Part shown: in pieces, positions 23,153 through 63,013 of the stretch
Numbering within the stretch: position 1 is the stretch's first letter
How the letters are laid out: each line of letters opens with the position of its first letter
Source of the DNA: an uncultured Acidobacteriota bacterium
GTDB taxonomy: Bacteria; Acidobacteriota; Thermoanaerobaculia; UBA5066; Gp7-AA6
DNA length: 64,000 nt
Direction: 5' to 3'
Assembly: GCA_963763535.1 (NCBI GenBank)
Contig: CAVXOX010000005.1
Coordinates: 27,605-91,604 of the forward strand
Program-made: the position numbers and the translations under genes
Notes under the pieces: model-generated
Database searches by the model: none
What the model was told of the DNA's origin: nothing
Seen by the model: the letters and a program-made list of their open reading frames with translations, nothing else

Positions 23153-24053
23153 TCAGGGCACCTCCATCCACCCCTCGGCGACGAGGACGCTCGTGCCGCC
23201 GATCCGCGCCTCGACGACCGCGCCTCCCCGCTTCTCGACCCGCGCCTCGAGCACGCTCGGGCGGCCCATCTCGACGCCCTGGGCGATGCGCCACCGGAAC
23301 GCGCCGTCCGGCTTCGCGTCGAAGTGCGCGAGCGCCGCGGCGAGCGCCACGTTGGCGCTGCCGGTCGCCGGATCCTCCGGGACGCCGTCCTTCGGCGCGA
23401 ACATCCGCGTGCGGAGGTCGAAGTCGTCGCCGCTCCGGACGTAGAGGTGCACGTCCGCCGGCACGCCGGCGGCCACCAGGGCGTCGACCCCGGCCGGGTC
23501 CGAGCGGGCGCGCTCGAGGGCGTCGCGGGAGACGAGCTCCGCGAAGAGAAACGGCAGACCGACCGAGAACGCCGTCGGCGCGTGGACGGCCGTCCGCACG
23601 TCCCGCGCCTCGAGCGAGACCGCCGCCGCGAGCGTCTCCGGCGAGACGCTCTTTCCTATCGACAGCGGCTCGGGCGCGGACAGCTCGCAGGCGATCGCCC
23701 CGCCGGCGCGCCGCTCGATCGTGATCGGGGACGAGCCCCGCCTTCTCCTCGAAGACGACCGTCCGCACGCCGGCGAGCGGACCGAGCTCTCCCGAGACCG
23801 CCAGCGCGAACGCGGTCCCGACGTTCGGGTGGCCGGCGAACGGCACCTCGATCGAGGGCGTGAAGATGCGTACGCGCCGGGTGTTCCCGAGCTCCGGCGG
23901 CAGCACGAACGAGGTCTCGGAGAAGTTGAACTCCCGCGCGATGCGCTGCATCTGCGCGTCCGAGAGCCCGCGGGCGTCGGGCAGGACCGCCAGCGGGTTG
24001 CCGCCGAAGATCGCGTCGGTGAAGACGTCGCAGTGCAGGTAGCGAAGGCGCAT
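23153..24053 (-). pseudogene. PhzF-family (phenazine biosynthesis-like, DAP-epimerase fold) gene disrupted by a +1 frameshift
   Basis: The N-terminal half ([13 protein letters not shown]...PFAGHPNVG) is in one frame from 24053. The C-terminal half (...[26 protein letters not shown]...) is in another frame. The junction is at the homopolymer GGGG at 23727-23730. Confidence 0.7.
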
Positions 24054-24061
24054 GGCGCCGC

Positions 24062-24613
24062 CTAGGACCGGCGGTACGGGCCCGAGCGGCCGCCGCTCTT
24101 CTCGACCAGCACGATCTCGCGGATCGTGGCGCCGCGGTCGAGCGCCTTGACCATGTCGTAGAGCGCGAGGCACGCGGCGGCGACCGCGGTCAGCGCCTCC
24201 ATCTCGACGCCGGTCTTGCCGGTGATGCGCGCGGTCGCCGTCACGACCGCCTCCCGCCTGGGCCTCGAGAGCGCGACGTCGACCTCCACGGACTCGAGCG
24301 CGAGCGGGTGGCACAGCGGCACGATCTCCGACGTGCGCTTGGCCGCCTGGATGCCGGCGACCCGGGCCACCGCGAGCGCGTCGCCCTTCGCGAGCCGTCC
24401 GCCGGCGAGCGCCTCGAAGGCCGCCGCGCCGAGCCCGACGACGCCGCGCGCAACCGCGACGCGGCGCGTCGCTCCCTTCTTTCCGACGTCGACCATGCGC
24501 GCGCGGCCGCGGGCGTCCACGTGCAGGACGCTCCGGCGGAGCGGCTCCGTGCGCCTCGGCCGCGCGGGCCGCTCGCGGCGGCGGGGCTTCTCGGGCTCGT
24601 CCGAGTCGCTCAT
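24062..24613 (-). CDS. moaC: Cyclic pyranopterin monophosphate synthase MoaC
   Basis: MoaC fold ([15 protein letters not shown]...VPLCHPL...[11 protein letters not shown]). Confidence 0.9.
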
Positions 24614-25200
24614 GCCCGCTCCCGCAGCGCCGCCCAGTCCTCGAGCGTGTTCAGGTTCGCGAACGCGGTGCCCGAGGGGTCGATGGCCGCCCACTCGGCT
24701 TCGTCGAAGATCTCCGCCCCGACCGCCTCGGCCAGCCCATACAGCGACAGGTCGCCGCGCGCGATCCGCCGGGCGGCCTCGTCCGCCGCGGCCCTCCGCC
24801 AGACGCCGGCGAGGGGCTGAAGCCGGCCGTCCGCCCGCGGGAGCACGGCCGCGGCGTCCGAGGAGAGCCCGCGCCGGGCGATCGCGGCGAGGAGCGCCGG
24901 CGTGACGGCCGGCAGGTCCACCGCGAGCACGAAGATGCGGTCGCGCGCCTCCGCGAGGGCGCGGACCAGCCCATGGATCGCCGCGTGCTCGGGCGCCGCG
25001 TCGGTGACGACGCGGGCGGGACCGACCGGGAACGCCGGCCGTTCCTTCGCGACGACGAGGACCTCCTCGAAGAGCGCCGCGAGGCGGGTCGTCTGGAACT
25101 CGAGGAGCGTCGTCGCGCCATACGGCAGCGCGGCCTTCGGGCGCCCCATTCTCCGCGAGGCGCCGCCCGCGAGCACGGCGGCCGGCATCGGCAGCGTCAT
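24610..25200 (-). CDS. mobA: Molybdenum cofactor guanylyltransferase MobA
   Basis: N-terminal [10 protein letters not shown] nucleotide-binding motif. The stop overlaps the moaC start (ATGA). Confidence 0.85.
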
Positions 25201-25263
25201 TCGAAGCGGATGCTACATCCCCCGGCAGGCTCGCGCGCGAGGACGACGGCGAAGGCGACCCGG

Positions 25264-26109
25264 CTACTTCTCCGATCCGCCGCCGAGGATGATCGGGAGC
25301 CCGGTCTTCGGGTTGCCGACGACGACGACCTTCGCGTTCGGGCTCATCGCGAGCTTCTCCGTCGCCTCGATGCCTTTCCACTCGAGCAGCTGCGGCGAGA
25401 TCCCCTGGGCCACGATCTTCTGGAAATCGGCGATGCCCTGGGCTTCGATGCGCTTGCGCTCGGCCTCCTGCTGCTCCTTGGCGAGGACGAACTTCATCTG
25501 CTCGGACTCCTGCTCGCGCTTCAGCTTCTCCTGGATCGCGTTGGCCACGATCGCCGGCAGGCCGATCTTCCGGAGCAGGACGGAGTCGATGATGACGCCG
25601 CGGCCGTCGGTCATCTTCTTGACGAGGTCCTGGGTCTCCCGCGCCACCTTTTCGCGCTCGGAGGAGTACAGCGCCTTGGCGTCGTAGGACGCCGTGATCT
25701 CCCGGATGGCCGAGCGCACCTGCGGAATGACGATGATCTCGGCGAAGTTGGCGCCCACCGTCTTGTAGACCTCGGCGGCCTTCGCCGGGTCGAGGCGATA
25801 GAGGACCGAGCCCTCGAGGTCCATCATGAGGCCCTCCTTGGACGGGACCTCCGCCGTCTCCTTCAGCTCCTCCGTCCGGATCGACATCTTGTGGACGCGG
25901 GTGAACGGCACGATCAGGTGGACGCCGGGCGGCAGGACGTTCGGGGAGACGCTGCCGAAGAAGTCCTTCACGCCCACGTGGCCGGCCGGGACGACCGTGA
26001 TCGGACCGCCGATCGCGACCAGCACGACGACGATGAGGAGGAGGATCGCGTTGCGCGCGAGGCGCGGGTTGGTGCCCGCGTTGGGAACGATCTCGAAGGT
26101 CTTGGCCAT
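25264..26109 (-). CDS. SPFH / band-7 (prohibitin/HflC-like) membrane protein
   Basis: N-terminal transmembrane helix, SPFH domain and a C-terminal coiled-coil (EQQEAERKRIEAQ). Confidence 0.85.
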   Translation of the reverse strand: MAKTFEIVPNAGTNPRLARNAILLLIVVVLVAIGGPITVVPAGHVGVKDFFGSVSPNVLPPGVHLIVPFTRVHKMSIRTEELKETAEVPSKEGLMMDLEGSVLYRLDPAKAAEVYKTVGANFAEIIVIPQVRSAIREITASYDAKALYSSEREKVARETQDLVKKMTDGRGVIIDSVLLRKIGLPAIVANAIQEKLKREQESEQMKFVLAKEQQEAERKRIEAQGIADFQKIVAQGISPQLLEWKGIEATEKLAMSPNAKVVVVGNPKTGLPIILGGGSEK

Positions 26110-26163
26110 GTGTCCTCCTAGGGTCGAGACGGACGGCGGGAAGAGGGGAACGGGGACTCCGGC

Positions 26164-27384
26164 CTAGACGAGCTTCAGCAGGTGCCCCATCTTGTTCTTC
26201 TTCGCCTCGAGGTACTTGCGGGAGCGGTCGGTCGGATGGACTTCGAGCGGCACGCGCTCGATGATCTCGAGGCCGTAGCCGTCGATCGCGACGTACTTCG
26301 ACGGGTTGTTCGTCATCAGGCGCATCTTGCGGACGCCGAGGTCGCGCAGGATCTGACAACCCACGCCGTAGTTGCGGATGTCCGGCGGGAAGCCGAGCTT
26401 CTCGTTGGCCGAGACCGTGTCGTGGCCCTGGTCCTGGAGCTCGTACGCCTTCAGCTTGTTCAGGAGCCCGATGCCCCGCCCCTCCTGCAGGAGGTACAGG
26501 AACACGCCGCGACCCGCCTCGACGATCTTCTCCATCGCGAGCTCGAGCTGCTCGCCGCAGTCGCAGCGCGCGGAGCCGAAGACGTCCCCGGTCAGGCACT
26601 GCGAGTGGACGCGCACGAGCGTCGGCTCGTCCTCCCGGATCTCGCCGTGGACGAGCGCGAGGTGCTCCTCGTGCGTGACGTCGCTGCGGTACGCGAAGAG
26701 GCGGAATTCGCCGAGGCGCGTCGGCAGGTGCGGCGCCGCGATCCGCTCGACCAGCCGCTCGGTCTTCATGCGGTAGCGGATCAGGTCGGCGACCGTGACC
26801 ATCCGGAGGCCGTGACGCGCGCAGAACTTCGCGAGGTCGGGCACACGCGCCATCGTGCCGTCCTCGTTCATGACCTCGCAGAGGACCGCGGAGGGATTCA
26901 GCCCGGCGATCCGCGCGAGATCGACCGAGGCCTCGGTCTGGCCCGCCCGCTTCAACACGCCGCCGCGCTGGGCGCGGAGCGGGAACATGTGGCCGGGACG
27001 GTTCAGGTCGGACGGCCCGGTCGCGGGATCGATCGCGGTCTTCACCGTCGCCGCGCGATCGGCCGCCGAGATCCCGGTCGTCGTCCGGCCGCGGGCCTCG
27101 ATCGAGACGGTGAAGGCGGTGCCGAAGTTCGACGTGTTCTCCGAGACCATCGGAGGCAGTTCGAGCGCGTCGCAGCGCTCCTCGGTCAGCGCGAGGCAGA
27201 TCAGGCCGCGGCCCTCGCGGGCCATGAAGTTGATCGCCTCGGCGGTCACCTTCTCGGCCGGGAGCACGAGATCGCCCTCGTTCTCGCGGTCCTCGTCGTC
27301 GACGACGACGACGAACTTTCCCGCCTTCAGGTCCTCGATCGCCTGCGCGATGGAGGCGAAGGGGGAATCCGGTGAATTCGGCAT
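26164..27384 (-). CDS. ribBA: Bifunctional 3,4-dihydroxy-2-butanone-4-phosphate synthase / GTP cyclohydrolase II
   Basis: RibB half (DDEDRENEGDL) and RibA half with zinc-ligand cysteines (CLTGDVFGSARCDCG). Confidence 0.92.
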   Translation of the reverse strand: MPNSPDSPFASIAQAIEDLKAGKFVVVVDDEDRENEGDLVLPAEKVTAEAINFMAREGRGLICLALTEERCDALELPPMVSENTSNFGTAFTVSIEARGRTTTGISAADRAATVKTAIDPATGPSDLNRPGHMFPLRAQRGGVLKRAGQTEASVDLARIAGLNPSAVLCEVMNEDGTMARVPDLAKFCARHGLRMVTVADLIRYRMKTERLVERIAAPHLPTRLGEFRLFAYRSDVTHEEHLALVHGEIREDEPTLVRVHSQCLTGDVFGSARCDCGEQLELAMEKIVEAGRGVFLYLLQEGRGIGLLNKLKAYELQDQGHDTVSANEKLGFPPDIRNYGVGCQILRDLGVRKMRLMTNNPSKYVAIDGYGLEIIERVPLEVHPTDRSRKYLEAKKNKMGHLLKLV

Positions 27385-27496
27385 CCCGTCATCTTCTCAC
27401 GAGAGGCACAAACTGCTGATTTTGAGAGCCATTGCCTGCTCTCAGCGCGGCGTCCGGGGAACGCGGACGACGGCGATGCGCTCCGCTCTGAATTCC

Positions 27497-27614
27497 CTCT
27501 CCCCCCGCACCGCGGGGGGAGAGGGTGAGGGTGAGGGGGGCGACACGATCCGCCGTGCGGCTCGAGGAAGGGTTGGGGCTCCCCTCACCCCGTCCCTCTC
27601 CCGCCGGGAGAGGG
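27497..27614. repeat. Two GC-only perfect hairpins and a G-tract run between the methylmalonyl-CoA mutase stop and the ribBA start
   Basis: Hairpin 1 is CTCTCCCCCCGC-acc-GCGGGGGGAGAG at 27497-27523 (12-bp stem). It is followed by GGGTGAGGGTGAGGGGGG, four or more G-tracts with G4 potential, through 27540. Hairpin 2 is CCCTCTCCC-gcc-GGGAGAGGG at 27594-27614. Confidence 0.6.
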
Positions 27615-27665
27615 AGCCCTATTGGATGCCCGCGGCTGAGAGAGCTCTGCCGGACGCGGCCCGCC

Positions 27666-29351: not shown

Positions 29352-29426
29352 AGGACTCGAATGATACGTCGTGGCCGGCCCTCGCGGCGCGGGGCCTCAT
29401 ATAAACTGAAGACCGGAGCCGTTCCG

Positions 29427-32596: not shown

Positions 32597-34950
32597 ATGG
32601 CCTCGAAGGTCTTCGGATCCTCCGTCAAGCGCAAGGAGGATCCCCGCCTCCTGACGGGACAGGCGAAGTTCACGGACGATTTCACGCTGCCGGGCATGGC
32701 CCATCTCGCCGTCGTGCGCTCGCCCGTACGCGCACGCGCGCATCAAGGCCATCCGGACGAAGAAGGCCGCCGGGATCGAGGGCGTCCTCGGCGTCTTCAC
32801 CGGCAAGGACATGAAGGAGGCCGGCTTCGGCCCGATCCCCTGCGCGTGGGTCGTCCCCGGCTCCGACGCGAAGACGCCGCCGTATCCGCCGATCGCGATC
32901 GACGTCGTCCGCTACGTGGGCAACGCCGTCGCGATCGTCGTGGCGACCGATCGCTACGTGGCGCGCGACGCCGCCGAGGCCGTCGAGGTCGACTACGAGC
33001 CGCTGCCGGTCGTCGTCGACGCGAAGAAGGCGACCGAGAAGGGACGCCCGCAGCTCCACCCGGACGTGCCGAACAACCTCGCCTTCACGTGGAAGGTCGA
33101 GGGCGGCAACGTGGATGCCGCCTTCAAGTCGGCCGACGTGGTCGTCTCCGAGCGGATCATCAACCAGCGCCTGATCCCGAACGCGATGGAGACGCGCGCG
33201 GCGCTCGCCGAGTACCGGTCGGCGACCGGCGAGGTCACGCTCTGGGTGACGTCCCAGAACCCGCACATCGTCCGCTTCCTGCTCTCGCTCGACACCGGCA
33301 TCCCCGAGAACAAGATCCGCGTCATCGCGCCCGAGGTGGGCGGCGGCTTCGGCAGCAAGATCCCGCACTACCCCGAGGACACGATGGTGATCTTCGCGTC
33401 GAAGCAGTGCGGCTGCCCGGTCAAGTGGGCCGAGACGCGGTCCGAGAACTACCGCGGCACGATCCACGGCCGCGACCACATCCAGGACGTCGAGATGGCC
33501 GCGAAGAAGGACGGCACCATCGTCGGCATCCGCGCCACGGTGTGGGCCAACATGGGCGCGTACCTCTCGACCGCGTCGACCGGCATTCCGACGATCCTGC
33601 ACGGCCTGATGCTCTCGGGCGCGTACGACATCCCGAACATCCGGCGAGGTCGTCCACGGGGTCTTCACGAACACGACGCCGACGGACGCCTACCGTGGCG
33701 CCGGGCGGCCCGAGGCGACCTTCATGGTCGAGCGGCTGGTCGATCTCGTCGCAGGGAAGCTGAAGATGGATCCGGTCGAGATCCGCAAGAAGAACTTCAT
33801 TCCCCCGTTCACCGACGGCCACGCGGTCGCGACCGGCATCACCTACGACTCCGGCAACTACATCGGCGCCCTCGAGAAGGCCCTGAAGATGCTGGACTAC
33901 CCCGCGCTGCGCGCCAAGCAGAAGGAGCTCCGCAAGAAGGGCGAGCACATCGGCGTCGGCTTCTCCACATACGCCGAGATCTGCGGGCTCGGCCCGTCGG
34001 CGGTTGCCGGCGCGGTCGGGTTCGGCGGCGGCCTGTGGGAGAGCGCGATCGTGCGCTTCCACCCTTCCGGCAAGGTCAACGTCTTCGTCGGCATCTCTCC
34101 GCACGGCCAGGGCGAGGAGACGACGTTCGCCCAGATCGTGTCGAGCGAGCTCGGCGTACCGGTGGAGGACGTCGAGGTCTTCCACGGCGACACGGGGCAG
34201 ACGCCGATGGGCTGGGGCAGCTACGGCAGCCGCTCGACGCCCGTCGGCAGCGGCGCCCTGATGGGCGCGATCGTAAAGATCCGCGACAAGGCGAAGATCG
34301 TCGCCGCGCACCTCCTCGAGGCGTCGGTCGACGACATCGAGTACTCGGACGGCAAGTTCGCGATCAAGGGCGCACCCTCGAAGGCGAAGACGATCCAGGA
34401 CATCGCGCTGATGGCGAACGTCGCGTGGAACTACCCGAAGGGACTCGAGCCGGGGCTCGAGGCGGCGGCGTTCTTCGACCCGGCGAACTTCGTCTACCCG
34501 TTCGGCGCCCATGCGGCCGTCGTGCGGGTCGACGTCGAGACCGGCGAGGTCAAGCTCGAGCGCTACGTCGCGGTGGACGACTGCGGCCGCGTCATCAATC
34601 CGATGATCGTCGAGGGCCAGATCCATGGCGGCGTCGTCCAGGGGATCGGCCAGGCGCTCTGGGAGGGCGCGGCCTACGACGAGGCCGGCCAGCTCCTGAC
34701 CGGCACGATGATGGACTACGCGGTGCCGAAGGCGGATGCGTTCCCGAACTTCGAGCTCGCGATGACCGAGACGCCCACGAACGTCAATCCGCTCGGCGTC
34801 AAGGGCATCGGCGAGACGGGGACGATCGCGTCGACGGCGGCCGTCTACAACGCGGTCATGGACGCGCTCGCGCCTCTCGGCGTGACGCAGATCGACATGC
34901 CGCTCACGCCCGAGCGCGTCTGGCGGGCGGTGCGGGACGCGCGGAGGTAG
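32597..34950 (+). pseudogene. coxL: Molybdopterin-binding large subunit (CoxL-like; active-site loop AYRGAGR, i.e. form-II-type) interrupted by two +1 frameshifts
   Basis: The N-terminus (MASKVFGSSVKRKEDPRLLTGQAKFTDD...VVRSP) runs in frame A to about 32725. Frame B (ARIKAIRT...AYDIPNI) runs from 32727 to 33641. Frame C (GEVVHGVFTNTTPTDAYRGAGRPEATFMVE...) runs from 33643 to 34950. The junctions are at CCCG 32723-32726 and CCGGC 33641-33646. Confidence 0.8.
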
Positions 34951-34953: not shown

Positions 34954-35822
34954 ATGTATTCGGAGAGCTTCGATTACTTCCGCCCGAAGACCCTCGCCGA
35001 GGCATCGGCGCTGCTGAAGAAGCACAGGGGCGCGCGTCTCCTGGCCGGCGGCCACAGCCTGCTCCCCGCGATGAAGTTCCGCCTCGCGACCCCGAAGGCG
35101 CTCGTCGACATCGGCGCGATCAAGGGCCTGTCGGGCATCGCCCCGCGCGGCAAGTCGACGTGGATCGGCGCGATGACCGTCCACGCGGAGGTGGCGGGGT
35201 CGAAGCTGCTCCGGAAGTCCTGTCCGCTCCTGCCGGAAGCGGCGGCGCAGATCGGCGACCCGCAGGTGAGAAACCGCGGCACGATCGGCGGCTCGATCGC
35301 CCACGCGGATCCCGCCGCGGACTACCCGACGGCGCTCGTGGCGCTCGGCGCGACGGTTCTGGCGCGCGGCCCCCGCGGCGAGCGCAAGATCCCGGCCGAG
35401 GATTTCTTCGTCGACCTCTTCACGACGGCGCTGAAGCCGGGCGAGATCGTCACGGGCGTTCTCGTTCCCGTGTTCGGCAAGGGCACCGGCGCCGCGTACC
35501 TGAAGCACCCCCACCCCGCCTCGCGTTACGCCGTCGCGGCGGCCGCCGCCATCGTCGACGTCGCGAACGGCGTCTGCACGCGCGCGATCCTGGTGATCGG
35601 CGGCGTCTCCGCGACGCCGGTGCGCGTCCTGCGCGCCCAGGAGGCGCTCGTCGGCAGGAAGCCCGACGCCGCCCCCATCCAGTCGGCCGCCGCGCAGGTG
35701 GAGGCGCTGGTCCCCGACCCATGGGCGACGTCTATGCCTCGGGCGAGTTCCGGATCCACCTCGCGTCGGTCCTCGCGAAGCGGGCGCTGACGGCGGCCTT
35801 CGAGCGGGCGAAGAAGGCCTAG
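34954..35822 (+). pseudogene. coxM: FAD-binding medium subunit (CoxM-like) with a -1 frameshift near the C-terminus
   Basis: FAD-binding fold (LAGGHSLLP...GTIGGSIAHAD). The frame changes at the CCC run 35718-35720. The authentic C-terminus (PMGDVYASGEFRIHLASVLAKRALTAAFERAKKA) continues in the 0-frame to 35822. Confidence 0.75.
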
Positions 35823-35875: not shown

Positions 35876-36901
35876 ATGCGCGACGTTCTCGACGACATCG
35901 AGCGGTGGCGCTCCGAGGGAAAGCCCGTGGCGCTCGCGACCGTGGTCGCGACATGGGGTTCGGCGCCGCGCGCGGTCGGCGGGAAGATGGCCGTGGCCGA
36001 TGGGAGGCACATCGCGGGCTCGGTCTCCGGCGGCTGCGTCGAGAACGCGGTGGCCGAGGCGGCCAGCGAGGTTCTCAAGACCGGTAAGCCGAGGCTCCTG
36101 AGGTTCGGCGTCTCCGACGATACGGCCTGGAGCGTCGGGCTCGCCTGCGGCGGCGCGATCGAGGTGTTCGTCGAGCGGCTCGCCGACTCGGCCTACGGCC
36201 TCGTCCGGGATGCGCTAAGGGCGGAGCGCTCTGTGGCCGTGACGACCGTCATCAACGGACCCGCGGACGCCGTGGGGCGCAAACTCGCGATCTCCGCCGA
36301 CGGGCGCACCGCCGGCGATCTCGGCGACCCGATCGATCGCGAGACGCGGGCCGCGCTCGCCGACGGTCGCAGCCGCCGGGTCACGATCGGAGAAGACGAG
36401 ATCTTCGTCGACGTGCTCCTCCCCTCCCCTCGCCTCGTGGTCGTCGGCGGCGTGCACATCGCGGTCGCGCTCGTGAAGCTCGCGCAGGCGCTCGGCTGGC
36501 GGACTGTGCTCGTCGATCCGCGGGAGGCGTTCGGCAACCGCTCGCGCTTTCCCGACGTGGACGACATCGTCTGGGACTGGCCGGACGCCGCCCTCGCGAA
36601 GCTCTCCCTGAACGAAGACACCGCGGTCGCCGTGCTGACCCACGACCCGAAGCTCGACGACCCCGCGGTCTCGGCCGCGCTCGCGAGCCCCGCCTTCTAC
36701 GTCGGCGCGCTCGGGAGCAGCCGGACGCAGGAGAAGCGCCGCAAACGCCTCCTCGCCGCCGGGCCTGACGGAAGGAGAGCTCTGGCGCGCCTCCACGCGC
36801 CGATCGGCCTCGACCTCGGCGGCCGCGCGCCGGAGGAGATCGCGCTCTCGGTCATGGCCCAGATCGTGGCGGCGCGCCACGGGAAGGCGAACGCTCCGTG
36901 A
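35876..36901 (+). CDS. xdhC: XdhC/CoxI family molybdoenzyme maturation (Mo-cofactor insertion) protein
   Basis: XdhC_CoxI N-terminal domain and XdhC_C Rossmann-like domain (VVVGGVHIAVAL). Confidence 0.85.
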   Translation: MRDVLDDIERWRSEGKPVALATVVATWGSAPRAVGGKMAVADGRHIAGSVSGGCVENAVAEAASEVLKTGKPRLLRFGVSDDTAWSVGLACGGAIEVFVERLADSAYGLVRDALRAERSVAVTTVINGPADAVGRKLAISADGRTAGDLGDPIDRETRAALADGRSRRVTIGEDEIFVDVLLPSPRLVVVGGVHIAVALVKLAQALGWRTVLVDPREAFGNRSRFPDVDDIVWDWPDAALAKLSLNEDTAVAVLTHDPKLDDPAVSAALASPAFYVGALGSSRTQEKRRKRLLAAGPDGRRALARLHAPIGLDLGGRAPEEIALSVMAQIVAARHGKANAP

Positions 36902-37228: not shown

Positions 37229-38148
37229 CAGGCCACCCTCAGCACGACCTTGCCGTGCGAGCGTCCGTGTTCGTTGAGGTCCATGGCGCGGGAGGCGCGG
37301 GAGAGCGGCAGGACCTTCGTGATGTGGGGCCGAACGACGCCCTTCTCGACGAGCCGCGCGATCTGTCGCAGGTCCCGGGTGTCGTAGCGCATCGCGAACT
37401 CGACCGCACGGACCCCGGCCCGGCGCGCCGCAGCCCGATCGATCTCGCCGATCAGGTTGATCAGCATGCCGCCCTTCTTCAGCACGCCCCAGGAGCGCTT
37501 CTGCGTGGCGCCGCCGATCGGGTCGATCACGACGTCCACGCCCGCGACCAGCTTCTCGAAGCGCTGGCGGTGGTAGTCGATGACGACGTCGACGCCGATC
37601 CGCTTCAGGAACGCGAAGCTCGACCGGCTCGCCGTCCCGATCACCCGGGCGCCCTTCCACAGCGCGAACTGCGCCGCGAAGGAGCCGACGCCGCCGCTCA
37701 CGCCGTGGATGAGGAAGACCTTCTTCGGAGACGCGCGCGCGGTGTCGACGACCATCTGCCAGGCCGTCAACGCCGGCATGGGAATGGAGGCGGCAACCAC
37801 GAAGTCGAGCGACCGGGGCATCCGCACGAGGTGGCGCAGCGGCACGACCGCGAATTCCGCGAAGCTGCCCCACGTCTCGCCGAAGACCCGGTCTCCCTCG
37901 CGGAAGCGGGACCGGGATCCGGGACCCGTCTCCTCGATGATCCCGGCAAAGTCCTGGCCGAGCGTGAGGGGCACGCGGTCGGCGCCCTTCGGGTTGTAGA
38001 TCTTCCGGACGACCATCCAGTCCACCGGATTGACGGCCGCGGCGCGCACCCGAACGAGCGCGGCGCCTTTCCTCGGGCGGGGCACGGAAGTGTCCTCGAC
38101 GCGGACCTTCGCGGAAGGCCCAAAAGCGTGGATGCGGGCGGCTCTCAT
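37228..38148 (-). CDS. NADPH:quinone reductase / zinc-type alcohol dehydrogenase (MDR superfamily)
   Basis: Medium-chain dehydrogenase/reductase (MDR) fold with the Rossmann motif GVSGGVGSFAAQFA. The true start is the ATG at 38148 (MRAARIHAFGP), not the longer ORF in the track. Confidence 0.85.
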   Translation of the reverse strand: MRAARIHAFGPSAKVRVEDTSVPRPRKGAALVRVRAAAVNPVDWMVVRKIYNPKGADRVPLTLGQDFAGIIEETGPGSRSRFREGDRVFGETWGSFAEFAVVPLRHLVRMPRSLDFVVAASIPMPALTAWQMVVDTARASPKKVFLIHGVSGGVGSFAAQFALWKGARVIGTASRSSFAFLKRIGVDVVIDYHRQRFEKLVAGVDVVIDPIGGATQKRSWGVLKKGGMLINLIGEIDRAAARRAGVRAVEFAMRYDTRDLRQIARLVEKGVVRPHITKVLPLSRASRAMDLNEHGRSHGKVVLRVA

Positions 38149-46386: not shown

Positions 46387-47582
46387 TCAGTGCGGAACCG
46401 TCCCGTCCCACTTCCCGAACGATTTGTACGGGCCGTCGCACGAGAGAACCGGCGCGTGCACCTTCAGGTTCTTCTTCTTCTTCGGCCCGTTACCGGGGTT
46501 CATGCTCAGATCGGCCGAATTGTCGCCGTGGTCGTCGCACTCCCACTCTCCGTCGTCGTCGCCTCGCACCAGATAGAGGGTCGGGGCACCCGGCTCGTCG
46601 AATCGGCTGTTGGCGGCGGCGTCGTTGTACCAGAGTCTCGCGGTGCCGGAGTTCTCGGGGCTATGAGGCAGGAGTTGCGCACGAACAGCTTGATGCTGAC
46701 GTTGTCGCCCGGGCAGAACGCCTCCGTCGGGAACGACAGCGGGATGGTGAGGAGGTTCGCGTTGTTGAACCCCTTGCCGCCTCCCGGCGCGCCGAGAAGC
46801 TCTCCGGAGCTGACCTCGGCGCCGTTCTTCTTCACCACGGCCTTCAGGTCGAACAGGATTCCTGCATCGTTGTCCTTCTTCAGCCCGATCCAGATTCTCG
46901 CCGCCGGAGAGTTGGAACTGGTCAGATCGACCACTTCGTAGTCCGAGAAGCCCTTGCTCTTCCCGCCCACGCCGGGATCGCCGGAACCGGAGTCCCCGAT
47001 GGCGTAGACGGTTCCGGTGATGTCCTGCGTGTAGCACTCGACATACGGGGTACCCGAGCAGTTCTGGGGGTCCTCCTCGGGGATGGGAGCCCGATAGAGG
47101 CGGACGTTGTGGAGCTGGTCGAGCGTGGGAAAGTCCCAGAACACCTTGTAGAGGACATCACCCGAGTAGTCGCAGTCCGTGCAACCGGGGTCGCCCTTTT
47201 GTGGCAGCGGTTCGACGACGTGGTAGAAGCCGCACTCGCCCGCCGGATCGCCGTTGAAGGTGGCCCCGTCGTACGGGATGCAGTTGGCGGGAGCCAGCGA
47301 AGGGATTGAGCCGGGCGGTCCAGCTGGCTGTCATCGGTGAAGAAGAACTGAACTGCCAGAGTGAACGGCCGTTCAACGTTTGCCGTGATCTTGATGAAGT
47401 GCCCGGTCCCGAAATCGAATTTTTGAGTCGACACGCAGGGGTACGAGTCCTCCTGGGCAGGAGAAGTCGTTTCCCTGCAGGGATAGTCGCCTCCTTCAGA
47501 GCAGTGAGACTCGCGGCAATCGACCCTCGCAGAAGTCCTGAGCCCAGGCCGGGCGCGCGAAAAGCAGCGCCGCGAGCACCAC
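46387..47582 (-). pseudogene. Cys-rich secreted protein of unknown family carrying at least three frameshifts, in a lower-GC islet
   Basis: A signal peptide (VVLAALLFARPAWA|QDFCEG) runs straight into a TGA. The protein-like sequence then continues in a second frame (CRESHCSEGGDYPC...FDFGTGHFIKITANVERP...) and a third (GSIPSLAPANCIPYDGATFNGDPAGECGFYHVVEP...KLFVRNSC). After a further shift near 46690 the C-terminus (ARLWYNDAAANSRFDEPGAP...SCDGPYKSFGKWDGTVPH) ends at 46387. The region has markedly lower GC than its neighbours. Confidence 0.5.
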
Positions 47583-47900
47583 ACCGCATCATGATTGCCT
47601 TGAGCTGGATCCTCTTTTCCATGATCCGTCCCTCCTTGAGAGAGTCGACGCGTCAACGGTTTTTGCGGCGGGGCTCGGATTCTCGTGCGGCCCCACGTGA
47701 GCAAGGTCCGGGCGCCCGGGTCCAATGCCCGCGAGCGCGGCAGAAGGCATCAACCACCTCCTTCCTTCAATCAATGGCAGGCGAATCGATCTCTCGCGCC
47801 CGTGCGCCGAGAGGCGGTACGTCTACCTTTTTGTTTGAAGCCGCGAAGTATATCGTCGAACCGACGGCAGGGTTCGAGGCGCCCCGGTGGCTCCAGCCAT

Positions 47901-48713
47901 CTAAGTGTCAGAAAGCAAGGGGCCTCGTCGCCTCTCCTGTCGCCCTAACCCAGCAGCTCCTTCAGGCGCGCGTGCCCCTCGCGGCTGACCGGGACCCGCG
48001 GCTACCGTCCGGCGAGGATCGCGACATGGCTCCCCCTCCCGTAGGCCTCGAGGCGAGCGAGGGCATCGAGGCGCACCAGGTGCGAGCGGTGAACCCGTAC
48101 GAACCGACCCGGATCGAGCGCGGCGGCGAGGCTCGAAAGCGTCTGCTGTCTTCAGGTAGGTCTTGCCCTCGCTCTTCAGGGCGACGTAATCGTCCTGGGC
48201 CTCCGCGGTGTCGAGCTTCTCCACGGGGATGATGTGCACCCGGCTGCCGTCCCGGACGACGATCCGCGTGAGATACGCGCCCTCGGGCCGGGCCGCGGCG
48301 TGCAGTTCGGCGGCGCGGACCGTCGCGCTGTCGGACAGGCGCGCCCGTGCCCGCTCGACCGCGGTCGCGATGCGCGACGCCTCGAAGGGCTTGAGCACGT
48401 AGTCGACGGCGTGGACCTCGAAGGCCTTGACGGCGTAGGCGTCGTAGGCCGTCACGAAGATCGCCGCGATCGCCGGGTCGAGCAGCTCGAGCACCTCGAA
48501 GCCGTCGAGCTTGGGCATCTCGATGTCGAGGAACACGATGCGCGGGGAGAGCTCGGCGGCGGCCCTCAGCGCCTCGAACCCGTTGGCGCACTCGCCGACG
48601 ACGCGCACGCCCGCGATGCCGGAAACGTGCTGCCTCAGGATCGCGCGCGCGGGCTCCTCGTCGTCCACGATGAGGACACCGATCTCCTCCCGGAGGGCGC
48701 CCGTCCCGGTCAC
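47901..48713 (-). pseudogene. LytTR-family response regulator (REC plus LytTR DNA-binding domain) with two frameshifts in the LytTR domain
   Basis: The receiver domain is intact (VLIVDDEEP...FLDIEMPKLDGFEVL...DYVLKPF). The LytTR domain reads ...DYVALKSEGKTYLK in frame 1, QTLSSLAAALDPGRFVRVHRSHLVRLDALARLEAYGRGSHVAILA in frame 2 and RVPVSREGHARLKELLG-stop in frame 3. The junctions are near 48141-48160 and 48001-48020. The GTG start overlaps the kinase gene stop. Confidence 0.7.
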
Positions 48714-53610: not shown

Positions 53611-54404
53611 TCCTCGAAGCGCTGCGCCGAGCGCGCGAGGCCGCCTACCGCGCCGCGAGCCCCTTCGAGGCGGCGTGGCGCCGCGTGACCGGCCGGGGGG
53701 CGTTGCCCCCGCTCTGGCTCCGCCGCCACGCGGGCGCGGTTTCGCGCTTCGAACCCGCCGCCCGCGACGCGGGCGCTTTCCTGGATCGCCTCGGTCTCGT
53801 CGCGCCGGATTGCCGCGTGCTGGACGTGGGCTGCGGAGCCGGTGCGCTCGTGCCGGAATTCGCGCGGCGTCTCGGTTCGGGCGGACAGTACGTGGGATTC
53901 GACGTGCACGCGCCCTCGATCCGCTGGTGCCGCACCGCGTACGCGGCCGACTCCCGGTTCCGGTTCGAGATCGCCGACGTCGCCTCTCCGTACGGGCACG
54001 CCACGGGCCCGTCCGCGCGGACCTACCGCTTCCCCGCCGAGGACGCCACCTGCGACCTCGTCATCGCCAAGTCGGTGTTCACGCACCTTCTCGCGGAGGA
54101 CGCCACGCACTACCTCGGCGAGATTCGCCGGGTGCTCCGGCCCGGGAAGGCCGCGGTCGTGACGGCTTTCCTGTTCGCACCCGACCGCCTCGTCCGCGTG
54201 CAGCGGGCCTTCCCCTTCGGCGATCCCTCGGGGTTCGTCCGCTGGCGCTTGCGGTCGCGCCCGACGGCGGCCGTCGCGTACGCGCGGGAGTTCTTCGAGG
54301 GAATGATCGCGAGGGCGGGCCTTCGCCTCCAGTGGCTGTCGGAGGGCTACCATCCGGGCGAGGAGCGCCTCACCGGCCAGGACACCCTCCTGCTCGGTCT
54401 CTGA
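53607..54404 (+). CDS. Class I SAM-dependent methyltransferase
   Basis: Motif I (VLDVGCGAG) and a post-I acidic residue. The GTG start overlaps the GT39 stop (GTGA). Confidence 0.75.
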   Translation: MILEALRRAREAAYRAASPFEAAWRRVTGRGALPPLWLRRHAGAVSRFEPAARDAGAFLDRLGLVAPDCRVLDVGCGAGALVPEFARRLGSGGQYVGFDVHAPSIRWCRTAYAADSRFRFEIADVASPYGHATGPSARTYRFPAEDATCDLVIAKSVFTHLLAEDATHYLGEIRRVLRPGKAAVVTAFLFAPDRLVRVQRAFPFGDPSGFVRWRLRSRPTAAVAYAREFFEGMIARAGLRLQWLSEGYHPGEERLTGQDTLLLGL

Positions 54405-54421
54405 GCGTTAGACTCGAACGG

Positions 54422-55108
54422 ATGGAGAGCGCCACCGCCCCGGCTGCCGCCCCGCCGCTCGCCGTCGAGTGGCTGGGCCGCCTCGCCTACGACGACGCGC
54501 TCGCGATCCAGCGCGACGCGGCCGCGCGCGTGGCGGCGGGAGAGGGCGACCGGCTGCTGCTGCTCGAGCACGAACCGGTCTTCACGCTCGGCCGCAACGC
54601 GAGCGCCGAGGACGTCCTGTTTTCCGCCGAGCGCTGCCGCGCGCTCGGCATCGCGATCCGAGAGACGAATCGCGGCGGCAAGGTCACGTACCACGGACCC
54701 GGGCAGATCGTCGGCTATCCGATCGTGAACCTCTCGCCCGACCGCCGCGACGTGAAGCGCTACGTCACGGACCTCGAGGAGGTCGTCCTCCGCGCCCTCG
54801 CCGGTCTCGGCATCGAGGCGTCGCGCTCCGACCGCCGGGAGCGCGTCACCTCCGTCTGGGTCGGCAACGACAAGATCGCGGCGATCGGGGTCCATCTCTC
54901 GCGATGGATCACGACCCACGGCTTCGCCTTGAACGTCACGGACGAGCCGCTCCCCCATTTCGCGGGCATCGTGCCCTGCGGCATCACCGACGGGGGCGTC
55001 ACCTCGATCGAGCGCTGCACCGGGAGGCGGCTCCGTCCGGAGGACCTCGCGGGAACCGTCGCGGCGCATTTCGGCGAGGTCTTCGGCCGCGAGATAATCG
55101 CCCCGTGA
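54422..55108 (+). CDS. lipB: Lipoyl(octanoyl) transferase
   Basis: LipB motifs ([25 protein letters not shown], catalytic CG in GIVPCGI). Confidence 0.9.
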
Positions 55109-57637: not shown

Positions 57638-57703
57638 CCCCGGCCCGCGCACGATACCTTCGCCTCCCGGCGATTCTCGAAGAGTGTACCCCGGCCGCCG
57701 CCG

Positions 57704-58714
57704 CTACCGAAAGTCCCGAACGTCGCGAAAGGGAGTCTCCCGGTCCTTGAAGTCGGGCCGGTAGTACTTGCCGGCGGTCTCGAGCTCCTGCTGGTAGCCG
57801 TTGGAGAGCCCGTTCGCCTCGAGCGCGGCGAGCGCCTCCTCCCATTCCTCGGCCGTGATGGAGCGCGAGAGCGCCGCGTACTTCTCGTTCGAGGCCGCGC
57901 GGTGGATCGGGTAGTACTGGGCCATCAGCGAGATCGCGACGCGGGGCGACAGCGTCTCGGCGATCCAGGCGAGCGTCTCACCGACGCCGGCCGCTCCGTT
58001 CGGCAGGACGAGGACGCGCACGAGGAGCCCGCCGCGCAGGAGCCCGTCGTCGTCGAGGTCGAGGCGAGAGCCCTTCTGCCGGAACATCTCGAGGAGAGCG
58101 GCGCGCGCGTGCGAGGGATAGTCGGGCACCTTCGAGTAGAGCGATCCGGCGCCGGCATCCGCGTACTTGAAGTCGGGCAGGTAGACGTCGACGATCCCTT
58201 CGAGAAGGCGCAGCACCTCGACCGAGTCGTAGGCGTTCGTGTTGTAGACGATCGGAAGGTTCAGCCCGCGTCGCGCCGCGAGGAGCACGGCCTTCGCCAT
58301 CTGCGGGGCGAAGTGCGTCGGCGAGACGAAGCCGATGTTGTGGCAGCCGCGCTCCTGGAGCTCGAGCGCCATGTCGGCGACGCGCTCGACCGAGATCTCG
58401 TTCGTCCGCTGCGTCGGGTAGTCCTGGCTGATCTGGTAGTTCTGGCAGTAGACGCAGCGCAGGTTGCAGTTGCCGAAGAAGATGTTGCCGGCTCCGCGCG
58501 TGCCCGAGAGGCAGGGCTCCTCGCCGAAGTGCGGCGTGTGGGCGGAGACGATCGGCCGCTCGCCGGAGGCGCAGGAGGCGAGAACACCGGCGAGCCGGTC
58601 GTTGCCGCAGTCGCGCGGGCAGACCGTGCAGGCGCGGAGCAGCGCGTACAGCTTCTCGACCCTCTCCTCGAGCTCCCCCGTCTCGAGGAGCCGGCGGTAA
58701 CCCGGTTCGAACAT
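57704..58714 (-). CDS. Radical SAM protein, PflX-like (homologue of pyruvate formate-lyase activating enzymes; COG1313)
   Basis: CNLRCVYCQN radical-SAM motif, and an N-terminal Cys cluster (CTVCPRDCG). Confidence 0.7.
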   Translation of the reverse strand: MFEPGYRRLLETGELEERVEKLYALLRACTVCPRDCGNDRLAGVLASCASGERPIVSAHTPHFGEEPCLSGTRGAGNIFFGNCNLRCVYCQNYQISQDYPTQRTNEISVERVADMALELQERGCHNIGFVSPTHFAPQMAKAVLLAARRGLNLPIVYNTNAYDSVEVLRLLEGIVDVYLPDFKYADAGAGSLYSKVPDYPSHARAALLEMFRQKGSRLDLDDDGLLRGGLLVRVLVLPNGAAGVGETLAWIAETLSPRVAISLMAQYYPIHRAASNEKYAALSRSITAEEWEEALAALEANGLSNGYQQELETAGKYYRPDFKDRETPFRDVRDFR

Positions 58715-58725
58715 CGCCGACCAGT

Positions 58726-59649
58726 CTAAGCGAACCGGGCGGGCAGCCGGCAGTCCGACGGCTTCTTGTCGTCGCGGAGCCCGAGGAACACGGGCTGGCG
58801 CAGCTTCCCGTCCGCGGTCCACTCCTGGAACGCGATCTGCGCGACGAGGCGCGGCGCGAGCCAGACCGCCCCCTTCTCCCGCGGCGGATTCACGAACGGG
58901 GACTTCGCGCGGACGATGGGACGAAACGTCTTCGCGAGCGCGGCGAGGGTGTCCGCCGTGAACCCCGTCCCGACCTTGCCGACGTAGACGAGCTCGCGTC
59001 CCCGGTACGCGCCGAGGAGGAGAGCGCCGAGGTTTTCGCGCGAGCCCTTCGGCGGCGTGTAGCCGCCGACGACGAGCTCCTCCTCCTGATGGACCTTGAC
59101 CTTCAGCCACCGCGTGCTGCGCCGCCCCTCGTAGCGCGAGGACTCGTCCTTGGCGACGAGCCCCTCGAAGCCGCGCCGCTTCGCCTCGCGGTAGGCGGCG
59201 AGCCCGTTTGCCGCCAGCCGACGCGAGAGGAACAGCCGCTTCGAAGCGCCGCGGAGCGCTTCGGCCGCCTCGGAGCGGCGCGCGGCGAGCGGCTCGCCGC
59301 GCAGGTCGCGGCCGTTCCGATAGAGGCAGTCGAAGACCGCGAAGTCCGTTTCGCCGCCGCGCTGGAGGAGCTGGAAGCGCGAGATGCCCTTGCGGTCGAA
59401 CACGACCGCCTCGCCGTCGAGCAGGAGCGTGCGGTCCGGGAGACCGGCGATCGCCGCCGCGACGTCGCGGAACGAGTCGGTGCGGTCCTTGTCGTTGCGC
59501 GAGAAGAGGCGCACGCGCTCCCCCTCCTTGTACGCGAGGATGCGGTAGCCGTCGTACTTCTCCTCGTAGGTCCAGCCCGCCCGGTCGAAGGGCTCGCCGA
59601 CGAGGGTCGCGAGCATCGGCGAGGCGCGGAACGGGATGCGGTCGCTCAC
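58726..59649 (-). CDS. ATP-dependent DNA ligase (LigD ligase-domain type, stand-alone)
   Basis: Motif I KYDGYR, the nucleotidyltransferase region and an OB-fold region. No Ku or polymerase domain is present in the window. Confidence 0.85.
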   Translation of the reverse strand: MSDRIPFRASPMLATLVGEPFDRAGWTYEEKYDGYRILAYKEGERVRLFSRNDKDRTDSFRDVAAAIAGLPDRTLLLDGEAVVFDRKGISRFQLLQRGGETDFAVFDCLYRNGRDLRGEPLAARRSEAAEALRGASKRLFLSRRLAANGLAAYREAKRRGFEGLVAKDESSRYEGRRSTRWLKVKVHQEEELVVGGYTPPKGSRENLGALLLGAYRGRELVYVGKVGTGFTADTLAALAKTFRPIVRAKSPFVNPPREKGAVWLAPRLVAQIAFQEWTADGKLRQPVFLGLRDDKKPSDCRLPARFA

Positions 59650-59718
59650 GCGCGGGACGCGGAAGGGCGCGCGGGACGGCGGGAAATCGGGGCCGCTCGT
59701 CTACAATGAGCCAACCGC

Positions 59719-61869
59719 ATGGCGCACATTCTGGCATGGGCACTCGCGACCGAGCTCGCGGGCCTCGCCGTTCTGCCGCCGCTGCGCGCGTTCTTCGGCA
59801 ACCGGCGCGACGCCGCGCTGCTCTCGCGGCCGATCGGCCTGGCGGCCGTCGCGTACCTGGGCTGGGTCCTCTCCCTCGCGACCACGTTCGGATTCCGGCG
59901 CGCCACGCTCCTGCTCGCGCTCGCGGCGATCGCGGCCGGCGGCCTCGTTCTGCGGCGCCGCGCCCCGGAGGGGTCCGCCGCGCGGGCCGACTGGTGGGGC
60001 GGGGAGGAGAAGCTCGCCGCGACGCTCTTCTGGGGCGCGTCGGCCGTGTTCCTGCTCATCCGCGCGTTCGGCCCCGCCATCCTCGGCGCCGAGAAGTTCA
60101 TGGACCTGGCGTTCCTGAACTCGCTCGCGCGGTACCCGGCCATGCCGCCCGCCGATCCCTGGATGAGCGGCAAGACGATCAACTACTACTACTGGGGATA
60201 TCTCCTCGCGGCCGCGCAGGCGAAGCTCTCGGGCGTGCCGCCCATGACGGCCTTCAACCTGGCGATCGCGACGTTCGCGGGCTCCTCCTTCGCCGCCGCG
60301 GCATGCCTCGGACTGCGGCTCTCCGGCGGACGGCTCGGCGTCGGCGTCGGCGCGGGCTTCGGCGCGGTCTTCGCGGGGAACCTGACCGGCGCGCTCGACG
60401 CGTGGAGCGCGCCCTTCGCCAAAGACTTCGACTACTGGCACGCCTCCCGCGTCATCGGACCGGAGAGCTTCAAGACCATCAACGAGTTTCCCTTCTTCAC
60501 CTTCTTCCACGCGGACCTGCACCCGCACCTCCTGGCGTTTCCCTATTTCATCGCCGCCTTCGCGGTCGCGCACCGCTGGATCGAGCGGGAGCGTCCGACC
60601 GGATGGCGCGGCGAGCTCCCGGCGATGCTGCTCGTCGCGCTCGTCGTCGGCACCGCGCGGGCCGCCAATTTCTGGAACCTTCCGGCGCTCGCGATCCTGC
60701 TCGTCGTCGGCGGCCTCTTTCGCGCGACGCGGGGGGCGCGGCTCCCGTCCCTCTCCGCCGCCGTCGGCGGGGCGCTCGAGGGCGCGGGGGTCCTCGTCGC
60801 CGCGCTGGTGCTCTTCCTCCCCTACACGCTGTCCTTCCAGCTCGCCCAGCGCGGCCTCGGGGCCGCCACGATGTTCTCCGGCGTTCTCGAGTTCCTGGGC
60901 ATGTGGGCCCTGCTCTTCCTCGTCCTCCTGCTGGGGCTGTGGCCGCGGAGCGCCGACGACTCCGAGGGCGCGCGCCGGCGGCGCGAGCTTTCCCTCGCGG
61001 TCGCCGCGGGCGTCTCGCTGCTCGCGGCGCTCGCGTCGGGGCGGCCCGCGATGGCGCTCGTCCTCTTCCTCGCCTTCCTCGCGGCCGGGGCGGCGTGGCG
61101 CTCGCTGCGCGGAGAGGCCGACGACCCGAACGGCGTCTTCGCCGCCTTCCTCGTGCTGCTCGGTCTCGGCATGGTCGGCGGCTGCGAGTTCATCTACTTC
61201 AAGGACACCTACGGCCAGGACCTGCAGCGGATGAACACGATCTTCAAGTTCTACCACCAGGCCTGGCCGCTCCTCGCGATCGGGGGCGCCGTCTTCGCCG
61301 GGCGGGCCCTCGACACCGCCCGGAGGAGCCGCTTCCTCCGCGCCGCGCTCGCCGCGGCGGTGCTTCTCTCCTGCCTCTGGCCGATCAACGTCGCGGTCTC
61401 CCGCTTCCGCCAGAAGGACGGGCCCCTCTCCCTGGACGCCCACGGCCCGCTCGTGCGCCGGAACAAGGGCGACGCCGCCGCGATCGACTGGCTGCTCAAG
61501 AACGCCCCGATGGGCTCCGTCCTCCTCGAGGCCTCGGGCGATCCGTACTCCGAGTTCGCGCGGATGTCGGCGCACACCGGCATCCCGACGGTGCTCGGCT
61601 GGGCGAATCACGAGGGCCTCTGGCGGGCGCGCGTGGGCGCCGAGGACCCGGAAGTGGCCGAGCGCCTGGCGGCGGTCAAGCTCTTCTACACGACGCCCGA
61701 CGCGCGGGTCGCGTGGCAGGTGGTCCAGAAGTACGGCGTCACCCACGTCGTGATCGGCGACATGGAACGGCGCACCTATGGGAACCCGGCGACCGCCGGC
61801 TTCTCCTTCCTCTACCCGGTCTTCATCTCCGAGGGCACCGCCGTCTACGCCGTCGCCCGGCCGAAATGA
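59719..61869 (+). CDS. DUF2298 / Chlor_Arch_YYY-domain polytopic membrane protein (716 aa)
   Basis: Signature KTINYYYWGY, more than 12 transmembrane segments and a C-terminal soluble domain. The stop overlaps the GT4 start (ATGA). Confidence 0.8.
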   Translation: MAHILAWALATELAGLAVLPPLRAFFGNRRDAALLSRPIGLAAVAYLGWVLSLATTFGFRRATLLLALAAIAAGGLVLRRRAPEGSAARADWWGGEEKLAATLFWGASAVFLLIRAFGPAILGAEKFMDLAFLNSLARYPAMPPADPWMSGKTINYYYWGYLLAAAQAKLSGVPPMTAFNLAIATFAGSSFAAAACLGLRLSGGRLGVGVGAGFGAVFAGNLTGALDAWSAPFAKDFDYWHASRVIGPESFKTINEFPFFTFFHADLHPHLLAFPYFIAAFAVAHRWIERERPTGWRGELPAMLLVALVVGTARAANFWNLPALAILLVVGGLFRATRGARLPSLSAAVGGALEGAGVLVAALVLFLPYTLSFQLAQRGLGAATMFSGVLEFLGMWALLFLVLLLGLWPRSADDSEGARRRRELSLAVAAGVSLLAALASGRPAMALVLFLAFLAAGAAWRSLRGEADDPNGVFAAFLVLLGLGMVGGCEFIYFKDTYGQDLQRMNTIFKFYHQAWPLLAIGGAVFAGRALDTARRSRFLRAALAAAVLLSCLWPINVAVSRFRQKDGPLSLDAHGPLVRRNKGDAAAIDWLLKNAPMGSVLLEASGDPYSEFARMSAHTGIPTVLGWANHEGLWRARVGAEDPEVAERLAAVKLFYTTPDARVAWQVVQKYGVTHVVIGDMERRTYGNPATAGFSFLYPVFISEGTAVYAVARPK

Positions 61870-63013
61870 AGATCCTGATGGCGATCGACTACTACCGGCC
61901 GCACGTGTCGGGGCTGACGCTCTACGCCGAGCACCTGGCGGAGGGCCTCGCGCGGCGCGGCCACGCGGTGCGCGTGCTGACCCACCGGCACGTCCCCGAC
62001 CTTCCGGTCGAGTCCGAGGAGAACGGCGTCGGCGTCGTGCGGGCGCCGGTCGCCGTCCGCTTCGGCAAGGCGCTCGTCTCGCCGGCGATGCTCGCCGACG
62101 CGCTCGCGGAGATCCCGCGCGCCGACGTGCTGCATCTGCACGCGCCGCTCGTCAACGCGATCTCGCTCGCGACGCTCGCCACGACGCTGCGCGTCCCGAT
62201 GGTCGTCACGTTCCACTGCGACCTGCAGACGCCGGCCGGGCCGGGGCAGCGCCTCGTCGAGAGCGTGGCGCGGGTCTCGCAGGACTTCGCGCTCGAGCGC
62301 GCGGCGCGCATCGTCACCTACACCGAGGATTACGCGCGCCACACGCGTTCGCTCGCCGAAAGGATCGAGAAGGTCGGCTGGGTTCGCCCGCCGGTCCCCG
62401 ATCCGCCGGAGACCGGGCGCACCGCGGCACAGGCGCGGGAGCGCTTCGGCGTCCACGGAGAGCCCGTGCTCCTCTTCCTCGGCCGCTTCGCCGAGGAGAA
62501 GGGACTCCCGGTGCTCGTGGACGCCTTCGCGGTGGTGCGCCGCCGCTTCCCCCGCGCGGTCCTGCTGATGGCGGGCGCCCGGGACGTTCCCGGCGAGACC
62601 GTGCTCGCGCGTCTGAAACCGAAGCTGGAGGACCCCGCGTCGGGGCTCCTCGCGCCGGGGATCGTGCCGCCGGAGGAGATCGGCGATCTGTTCGAGATCG
62701 CGGACGTGCTGGTCCTGCCCTCGATCAACGCGACCGAGTCGTTCGGCCTCGTGCAGGTGGAGGCGATGCTCCGGGGCGTTCCCGCCGTCGCGTCCGATCT
62801 CCCGGGCGTGCGCCAGCCCGTGCGCCTGACCGGCATGGGCGAGATCGCGCCGATCGGCGACGCGGCGGGCCTCGCGCGCGCGATCCTGAGGGTGCTGGAG
62901 GATCCCCACGGTACCGCCGGCCGCGCAACGAGATCCGCGCCCTGTTCTCCACCGACGACACTCTCGCCTTCTACGAGGCGACGTACGCGGCGGCGCGGCG
63001 GGGCGGCCCGTGA
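61866..63013 (+). pseudogene. GT4-family glycosyltransferase with a C-terminal frameshift
   Basis: GT4 fold (...EAMLRGVPAVASDLPGV...) is intact to about 62905. The authentic tail (...RNEIRALFSTDDTLAFYEATYAAARRGGP) is in another frame and ends at 63013. The shift lies between about 62900 and 62930. Confidence 0.7.

Follow-up and report, generated by a model that had tools for sequence, protein, structure and literature searches.

Here we report that 13 frame-breaking insertions or deletions (indels), each of 1–2 nucleotides (nt), interrupt six genes in a 64,000-nt stretch of DNA from an uncultured Acidobacteriota bacterium (Thermoanaerobaculia, UBA5066, Gp7-AA6; assembly GCA_963763535.1, contig CAVXOX010000005.1, positions 27,605 to 91,604 of the forward strand; hereafter referred to as the window). 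The affected genes encode a PhzF-family isomerase (phzF, one event), a CoxL-like molybdopterin subunit (coxL, two), a CoxM-like flavin adenine dinucleotide (FAD) subunit (coxM, one), a Cys-rich secreted protein (five), a LytTR-type response regulator (three) and a GT4 glycosyltransferase (one). Judging from sequence comparisons, we put the probability that these frame breaks are consensus or assembly indel errors of a long-read metagenome assembly at about 85%, and the organism's own phzF, coxL, coxM, Cys-rich, LytTR and GT4 genes are most probably intact. This explanation is favoured because the lesions are exclusively 1–2 nt in size, correction yields conserved genes of full length, conspecific sequences are intact, and sister assemblies carry noise of the same kind, including in essential genes. 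We infer that the bases added or missing here would find no support in the source reads.

The original prediction had claimed at least ten frameshifts, which proves to be an undercount; in each gene that it named, the frame does change, no more than a few bases away from the positions given. Its statement that most changes are +1 agrees with the direction of the 13 events, which comprise 10 insertions and 3 deletions and are G/C-rich. The further statement that several changes sit in short homopolymers holds for about half of the events, at which there are runs of 2–4 nt; the remainder lie outside such runs, and none lies in a long run.

The GC content of the window is 72%, and long spurious open reading frames (ORFs) consequently occur in all frames. 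Coding frames were called in two ways, by third-position GC and by a codon-usage Viterbi scan, which was trained on the long ORFs of the window and scores the distance from the end of each coding segment to the in-frame stop; genuine gene ends fall on a stop codon. Event positions were refined by three-frame reading, frameshift-aware protein-to-DNA alignment to orthologues and DNA alignment to conspecific contigs. Two such contigs were found by searching for exact protein matches to the adjacent DUF3175 gene, and the comparison was then extended to window positions 13.2–64 kb. Both come from ENA metagenome assemblies and have Flye-style names: contig_63427 of ERZ25039558 (66.8 kb; labelled L001/L084) and contig_18998 of ERZ25039551 (2.22 Mb; labelled L002/L083/L085/L086). 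Across most of 13.2–64 kb, their identity to the window is about 97%. For orthologue comparison, we also used a contig of the Microflora Danica metagenome-assembled genome (MAG) MFD04944.bin.1.1 (L003) and the coxL gene of the Nanopore MAG MFD02134.bin.2.168 (L069), which is more distant (84% amino acid identity).

The Viterbi scan identified coding segments ending 70–2,200 nt before a stop only in phzF, coxL, coxM and the Cys-rich, LytTR and GT4 genes, that is, in 6 of the approximately 57 genes of the window. Pfam matches of full or nearly full length were obtained for thirty other window genes, and the Viterbi scan, Pfam matching and three-frame reading revealed no frame break in the window beyond the six genes. 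The events are unevenly distributed, with 8 of the 13 inside 1.6 kb and event-free stretches of 9–23 kb elsewhere. Once the indels are removed, every affected gene that has a Pfam family shows an end-to-end domain match, and the corrected alignments and Pfam matches revealed no nonsense substitution, large deletion or insertion element in the six genes. The comparison with related loci, which had been proposed together with the frameshift claim, finds the frame-preserving state at all 13 sites in whichever of the conspecific contigs cover each.

The first 23 kb had been described as clean, and the Viterbi scan indeed finds no coding segment there that ends far from a stop. The Pfam matches at 1–13 kb are full-length or nearly so, with a single partial match (purB) that is intact by three-frame reading, and no window-private coding indel was found in 15.4–23.7 kb relative to the two conspecific contigs. 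Two additional candidates were considered and rejected. An apparent purB frameshift at about position 7572 resolves, by three-frame reading, into a small separate zinc-ribbon ORF followed by the intact purB gene, and an apparent extra frameshift at 36.9–38.6 kb corresponds to two intact genes, encoding a DUF3175 protein and a zinc-type alcohol dehydrogenase.

The phzF gene (23153..24053, minus strand; 299 residues when corrected) is divided into two frames by an extra T at 23725 in the context GA[T]CGGGG. The break had been assigned to the G4 run at 23727–23730; the frame change is confirmed, but the extra base adjoins the run and lies outside it. The corrected protein aligns to crystallised PhzF proteins in the PDB with a gap-free junction and covers positions 2–281 of 281 of the Pfam PhzC-PhzF family, and both conspecific contigs encode an intact 299-residue PhzF with 99% identity.

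The coxL gene (32597..34950, plus strand; 783 residues when corrected) has one surplus C at 32723 (CCC in place of CC) and one surplus G at 33643 (GG in place of G), matching the two breaks claimed near 32723–32726 and 33641–33646. After correction, CoxL can be aligned over its whole length to PDB 8UEM_A, with a gap-free first junction, and it shares 97.4% identity with the conspecific copy. CoxL orthologues in related Thermoanaerobaculia are uniformly 783 residues long, which is the corrected length. A search for an intact conspecific CoxL from short-read data returned nothing closer than 93%. The motif AYRGAGR is present, which we take to be that of form-II CoxL-like enzymes, as opposed to the AYXCSFR motif of form-I carbon monoxide (CO) dehydrogenase, as in 8UEM; the sequence by itself gives no justification for naming the locus a CO dehydrogenase.

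The position of the coxL breaks differs from assembly to assembly. The window copy has two, the contig_18998 copy has five, L069 has one at another place, and the contig_63427 copy is fragmented. Since the CoxL proteins reconstructed from contig_18998 and L069 remain 83–97% identical to the window protein, independent inactivation across these lineages is not credible, and random assembly error is the simple explanation. These observations bear on an alternative that we consider improbable, namely that the breaks are genuine recent pseudogenes, with the strain having really lost phzF, coxLM and the Cys-rich, LytTR and GT4 genes as accessory functions fade. The presence of several events per gene is what would be expected of dead genes, but in coxL this explanation would need separate inactivation in the window, contig_18998, L069 and contig_63427.

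The coxM gene (34954..35822, plus strand; 289 residues when corrected) lacks a T between 35717 and 35718 (CCCCGA^CCC). A break had been placed at the C-run at 35718–35720; the break is real in the assembled sequence and consists of this missing T. Correction restores a match to positions 2–101 of 102 of Pfam CO_deh_flav_C, an intact 289-residue CoxM with 98% identity is encoded on contig_18998, and the shortened 278-residue product is already in a public protein collection. The XdhC/CoxI gene (35876..36901, plus strand) contains two indels that compensate each other, +1 at 36761 and +2 at 36775–36776, which keep the frame and swap five residues (GPDGRRAL in place of GLTEG(A/T)L), and which are outside the count of 13 events. 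Frame checks alone are blind to compensated errors of this type, and more silent ones may exist. The GT4 glycosyltransferase gene (61866..63013, plus strand; 382 residues when corrected) lacks a T between 62906 and 62907 (GATCCC^CACGG), in line with the single break claimed for it. Correction leaves both GT4 Pfam domains complete, and the copy on contig_18998 is 97% identical, with one frameshift of its own at a different place.

The sequence contexts of the events also bear on programmed recoding, by ribosomal frameshifting or transcriptional slippage, and on phase variation at repeat tracts, which together we regard as exceedingly improbable. Some events do touch short G/C runs, and phase variation would be plausible for a Cys-rich secreted protein. 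However, these runs are only 1–4 nt long, no long or simple-repeat tract occurs at the sites, and the events affect six unrelated genes, with several same-direction events per gene. At each site, moreover, the orthologues and the conspecific copies read through in one frame, which effectively refutes recoding. The known shift sites of prfB, dnaX and the IS3-family transposases likewise involve a +1 or −1 change inside a functional gene, and they are conserved in orthologues and accompanied by slippery or stimulatory signals. By contrast, the orthologues here are single-frame, and the sites have no such signals.

Eight of the events lie in the segment at 46.4–48.2 kb. The Cys-rich secreted protein gene (46387..47622, minus strand) contains five, +1 at about 47589, +1 at about 47522, +1 at 47317, +1 at 47305 and −1 at 46661, consistent with the earlier claim of at least three. 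This protein has no Pfam family. Its orthologue is single-frame in L003, and the N-terminal part is single-frame on contig_18998. In L003 (13634–15370), the Cys-rich protein has a duplicated N-terminal module.

The LytTR-type response regulator gene (47945..48713, minus strand) had been credited with two events; the breaks are confirmed, but they number three: a +1 at 48146, followed by a +1 at about 48009 and a +2 at about 47993. Between the latter two lie four codons read out of frame, from which an in-frame TAG arises at 48002–48004, and the shifted frame reads DGSRVPVSR, an exact match to the conspecific copy. We considered whether the TAG is a nonsense substitution, which would favour decay, and rejected this, as the orthologues show a +1/+2 indel pair. 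An intact 247-residue LytTR regulator is encoded on contig_18998 and reads ...TDGSRVPVSREG, and the Pfam Response_reg and LytTR domains of the corrected regulator are both full length.

Amino acid identity to the contig_18998 copies is about 61% for the Cys-rich protein and 72% for the LytTR regulator, compared with 97–98% in the flanks; at the DNA level, the segment is about 90% identical to the related contigs, again compared with 97–98% in the flanks. These comparisons suggest that the Cys-rich gene is a hypervariable locus for a secreted protein, beside a LytS/LytTR/LiaF-like module. The genuine-pseudogene explanation is most plausible for this hypervariable, strain-specific island. We nevertheless judge it quite unlikely that the eight Cys-rich and LytTR events are real, in which case the strain would have inactivated a hypervariable secreted-protein locus and its regulator while the cognate LytS-type kinase stayed intact.

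The concentration of 8 of the 13 events in 1.6 kb of the most divergent segment also suggests a variant of the artefact that may act together with consensus error, in which alleles of co-existing strains were piled onto one contig over 46.4–53.6 kb and garbled by polishing. In keeping with such a chimeric consensus, contig_63427 is itself mosaic relative to contig_18998, with an identical xdhC–DUF3175 portion and a coxL gene that is about 9% divergent. However, the phzF, coxL, coxM and GT4 events are isolated in cleanly aligned sequence with no mismatches nearby, and mixing is not needed to explain them. We regard strain chimerism as a tentative possibility for the events as a whole, whereas a strain-mixture consensus likely contributes in the 46–48 kb cluster. 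As a separate observation, the mosaic pattern of contig_63427 extends to a near-identical kinase gene and to an E1–coxLM region that is about 9% divergent, and could stem from strain recombination or from chimeric assembly.

The ENA contigs have many private indels of their own. The single-base indels private to these contigs comprise 193 insertions and 28 deletions (about 87% insertions), are about 80% G/C and rarely fall in homopolymers. They are also strongly clustered, as exemplified by 14 in 1.1 kb adjoining 9.5 kb with none. The genes ddl, ribBA, methylmalonyl-CoA mutase, moaA, E1-beta, fpg and DUF2298 have fragmented gene calls on the ENA contigs and are intact in the window. The window events share this character, with an insertion excess, a G/C-rich composition and clustering.

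The same features help to weigh genuine decay against consensus error. Bacterial pseudogenes are usually deletion-biased, and the 10:3 insertion excess runs contrary to this bias and matches the noise of the sister long-read contigs. The window contains two pairs in which a +1 is followed by a +2 within approximately 15 nt, one in the LytTR gene and one in xdhC; these look like the product of a locally garbled consensus, which yields them easily, and they are improbable as independent mutations. Genuine pseudogenes would moreover have to combine up to five indels per gene with no nonsense codon, deletion or insertion sequence (IS) element and with full-length, conserved corrected proteins, and none of the lesions is shared by the conspecific contigs. 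A density of 6 broken genes in about 57 is typical of degrading symbiont genomes, not of a free-living soil bacterium. As in the decaying genomes of Mycobacterium leprae and Sodalis, there are many frameshifted genes per length and several lesions per gene. However, those genomes also contain nonsense codons, deletions, IS expansion and genome-wide relaxed constraint, whereas here only small indels occur, the corrected proteins are conserved, and the conspecifics are intact at these sites. The suggested ongoing loss of CO/xanthine-dehydrogenase-type metabolism, of the LytTR circuit and of PhzF is not supported.

Several observations weigh against consensus error, and some of them speak for genuine loss. 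The housekeeping genes of the window are intact, and all six affected genes are accessory. Clearly essential genes make up, by a rough estimate, only about 15–20% of the coding length of the window, and the events form about five independent clusters, so that this accessory-only targeting is not significant. The clustering of the events is far beyond a uniform error model, a pattern explained by a local-quality model and by a dead-gene model alike. In coxL, 18 of 33 window-private substitutions (0.55) are non-synonymous, compared with 66 of 247 (0.27) in the pooled intact genes, a raised fraction that fits relaxed selection as well as it fits substitution errors in a poorly polished stretch. 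When we polarised the CoxL amino acid differences by eye using L069, they split about evenly between the window and contig_18998, and the window changes were conservative. Finally, the window lacks two frame-breaking insertions that the ENA contigs share, at window positions 25407 and 32773, and was thus not subject to identical systematic errors. The insertion at 25407 breaks an SPFH gene and that at 32773 breaks coxL, in contigs that come from different assemblies and are about 3% apart in places. At the SPFH site, the amino acids downstream of the shared insertion are fully conserved, and the shared insertions look like systematic, context-specific consensus errors.

A GATC motif directly flanked by a C/G run occurs at three window events, at each of which an A/T base is gained or lost (CCCCG[A]TC at 23725, CCCCGA^CCC at 35717/35718 and GATCCC^C at 62906/62907). 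GATC is very common here, with 600 sites, and no GATC enrichment was found among the private indels of the ENA contigs (6–7% near GATC versus 10% expected). We drew no conclusion about a methylation-motif cause, for which the link is unproven.

If the frame breaks are consensus errors, their most probable source would be consensus calling in a Nanopore-only MAG assembled with Flye and polished with Medaka. Single bases, mostly G or C, would have been inserted into or sometimes dropped from the consensus in local clusters, and the segment at 46.4–48.2 kb may be the densest because the reads of co-existing strains were hardest to reconcile there. Microflora Danica MAGs were produced from Nanopore reads only, by Flye assembly and a single round of Medaka polishing to reduce indel errors, and their authors checked for Nanopore-associated errors and found a lower coding density in a few MAGs, mainly those of lower coverage (PMC12313526). 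Among the matches listed, the closest GTDB genome is a Microflora Danica MAG (81% amino acid identity, kinase), as are many of the other listed matches. Independently of this, a contig of megabase size for an uncultured soil bacterium is indicative of long reads, and we infer that the window contig was made by the same technology as the sister assemblies.

Indels in Nanopore assemblies are described in PMC9262707, and the picture in long-read-only assemblies and MAGs (Nanopore or PacBio continuous long reads; background in PMC9262707 and PMC12313526) resembles that found here, in that single-base indels break conserved genes and assemblies of one organism differ in their break sites. In such assemblies, the density of indels follows local coverage and polishing, and gene calling yields fragments, as the gene tables of the sister contigs illustrate. 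The classical Nanopore error is a deletion in a long homopolymer, whereas the window and the sister contigs, at 72% GC, have mostly G/C insertions outside long homopolymers. The suggestion that the frame changes arose from long-read or 454-type homopolymer errors is partly right: the pattern agrees with noise in a long-read consensus, but a 454-type origin is unlikely, because many events lie outside homopolymers.

Further differences and loci were noted along the window. The threonine-dehydratase/serine-racemase-like (PALP) gene at about 12803–13786 had been proposed as a possible eleventh frameshift. It does lack a canonical start, with no in-frame ATG, GTG or TTG in 12600–12887, upstream of the conserved N-terminus, but it is not frameshifted, and it also lies outside 23153–63013. 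Its only nearby start candidates are an ATT at 12803–12805, which overlaps the TGA of the upstream ornithine-cyclodeaminase-like gene, and a GTG at 12887, which would drop the conserved RTPL motif. Upstream of fpg (mutM), at window position 15439, approximately 91 nt of intergenic sequence present in both ENA contigs are missing. Window positions 37364–38032, a 669-bp segment within the zinc-type alcohol dehydrogenase/quinone oxidoreductase gene, are absent at identical breakpoints in both ENA contigs, and a short Logan contig (ERR12037362) contains the same fragments of this gene; the absence looks like a real strain-level deletion that cuts short the gene in other strains. A gene for an S-adenosylmethionine-dependent methyltransferase (Pfam Methyltransf_25/11; 53629–54406) is absent from contig_18998, in which PMT_2 is followed almost directly by lipB, a difference that would represent a strain-specific gene insertion or deletion.

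Errors in long-read assemblies reportedly affect protein prediction, a point attributed to Watson and Warr in 2019. The 13 events have their value as an annotation warning for this MAG and its relatives and are most probably not a real biological feature. As had been anticipated, downstream annotation must change, and these genes are to be treated as frameshift-corrupted. Read at face value, the window would suggest that a molybdenum hydroxylase of the CoxLMS type, a PhzF isomerase, a two-component circuit with LytTR and a glycosyltransferase have been lost. Gene callers will give shortened or split products for the affected genes, and metabolic reconstructions, pseudogene counts and ratios of non-synonymous to synonymous substitution (dN/dS) derived from this MAG and the sister assemblies would accordingly be biased.

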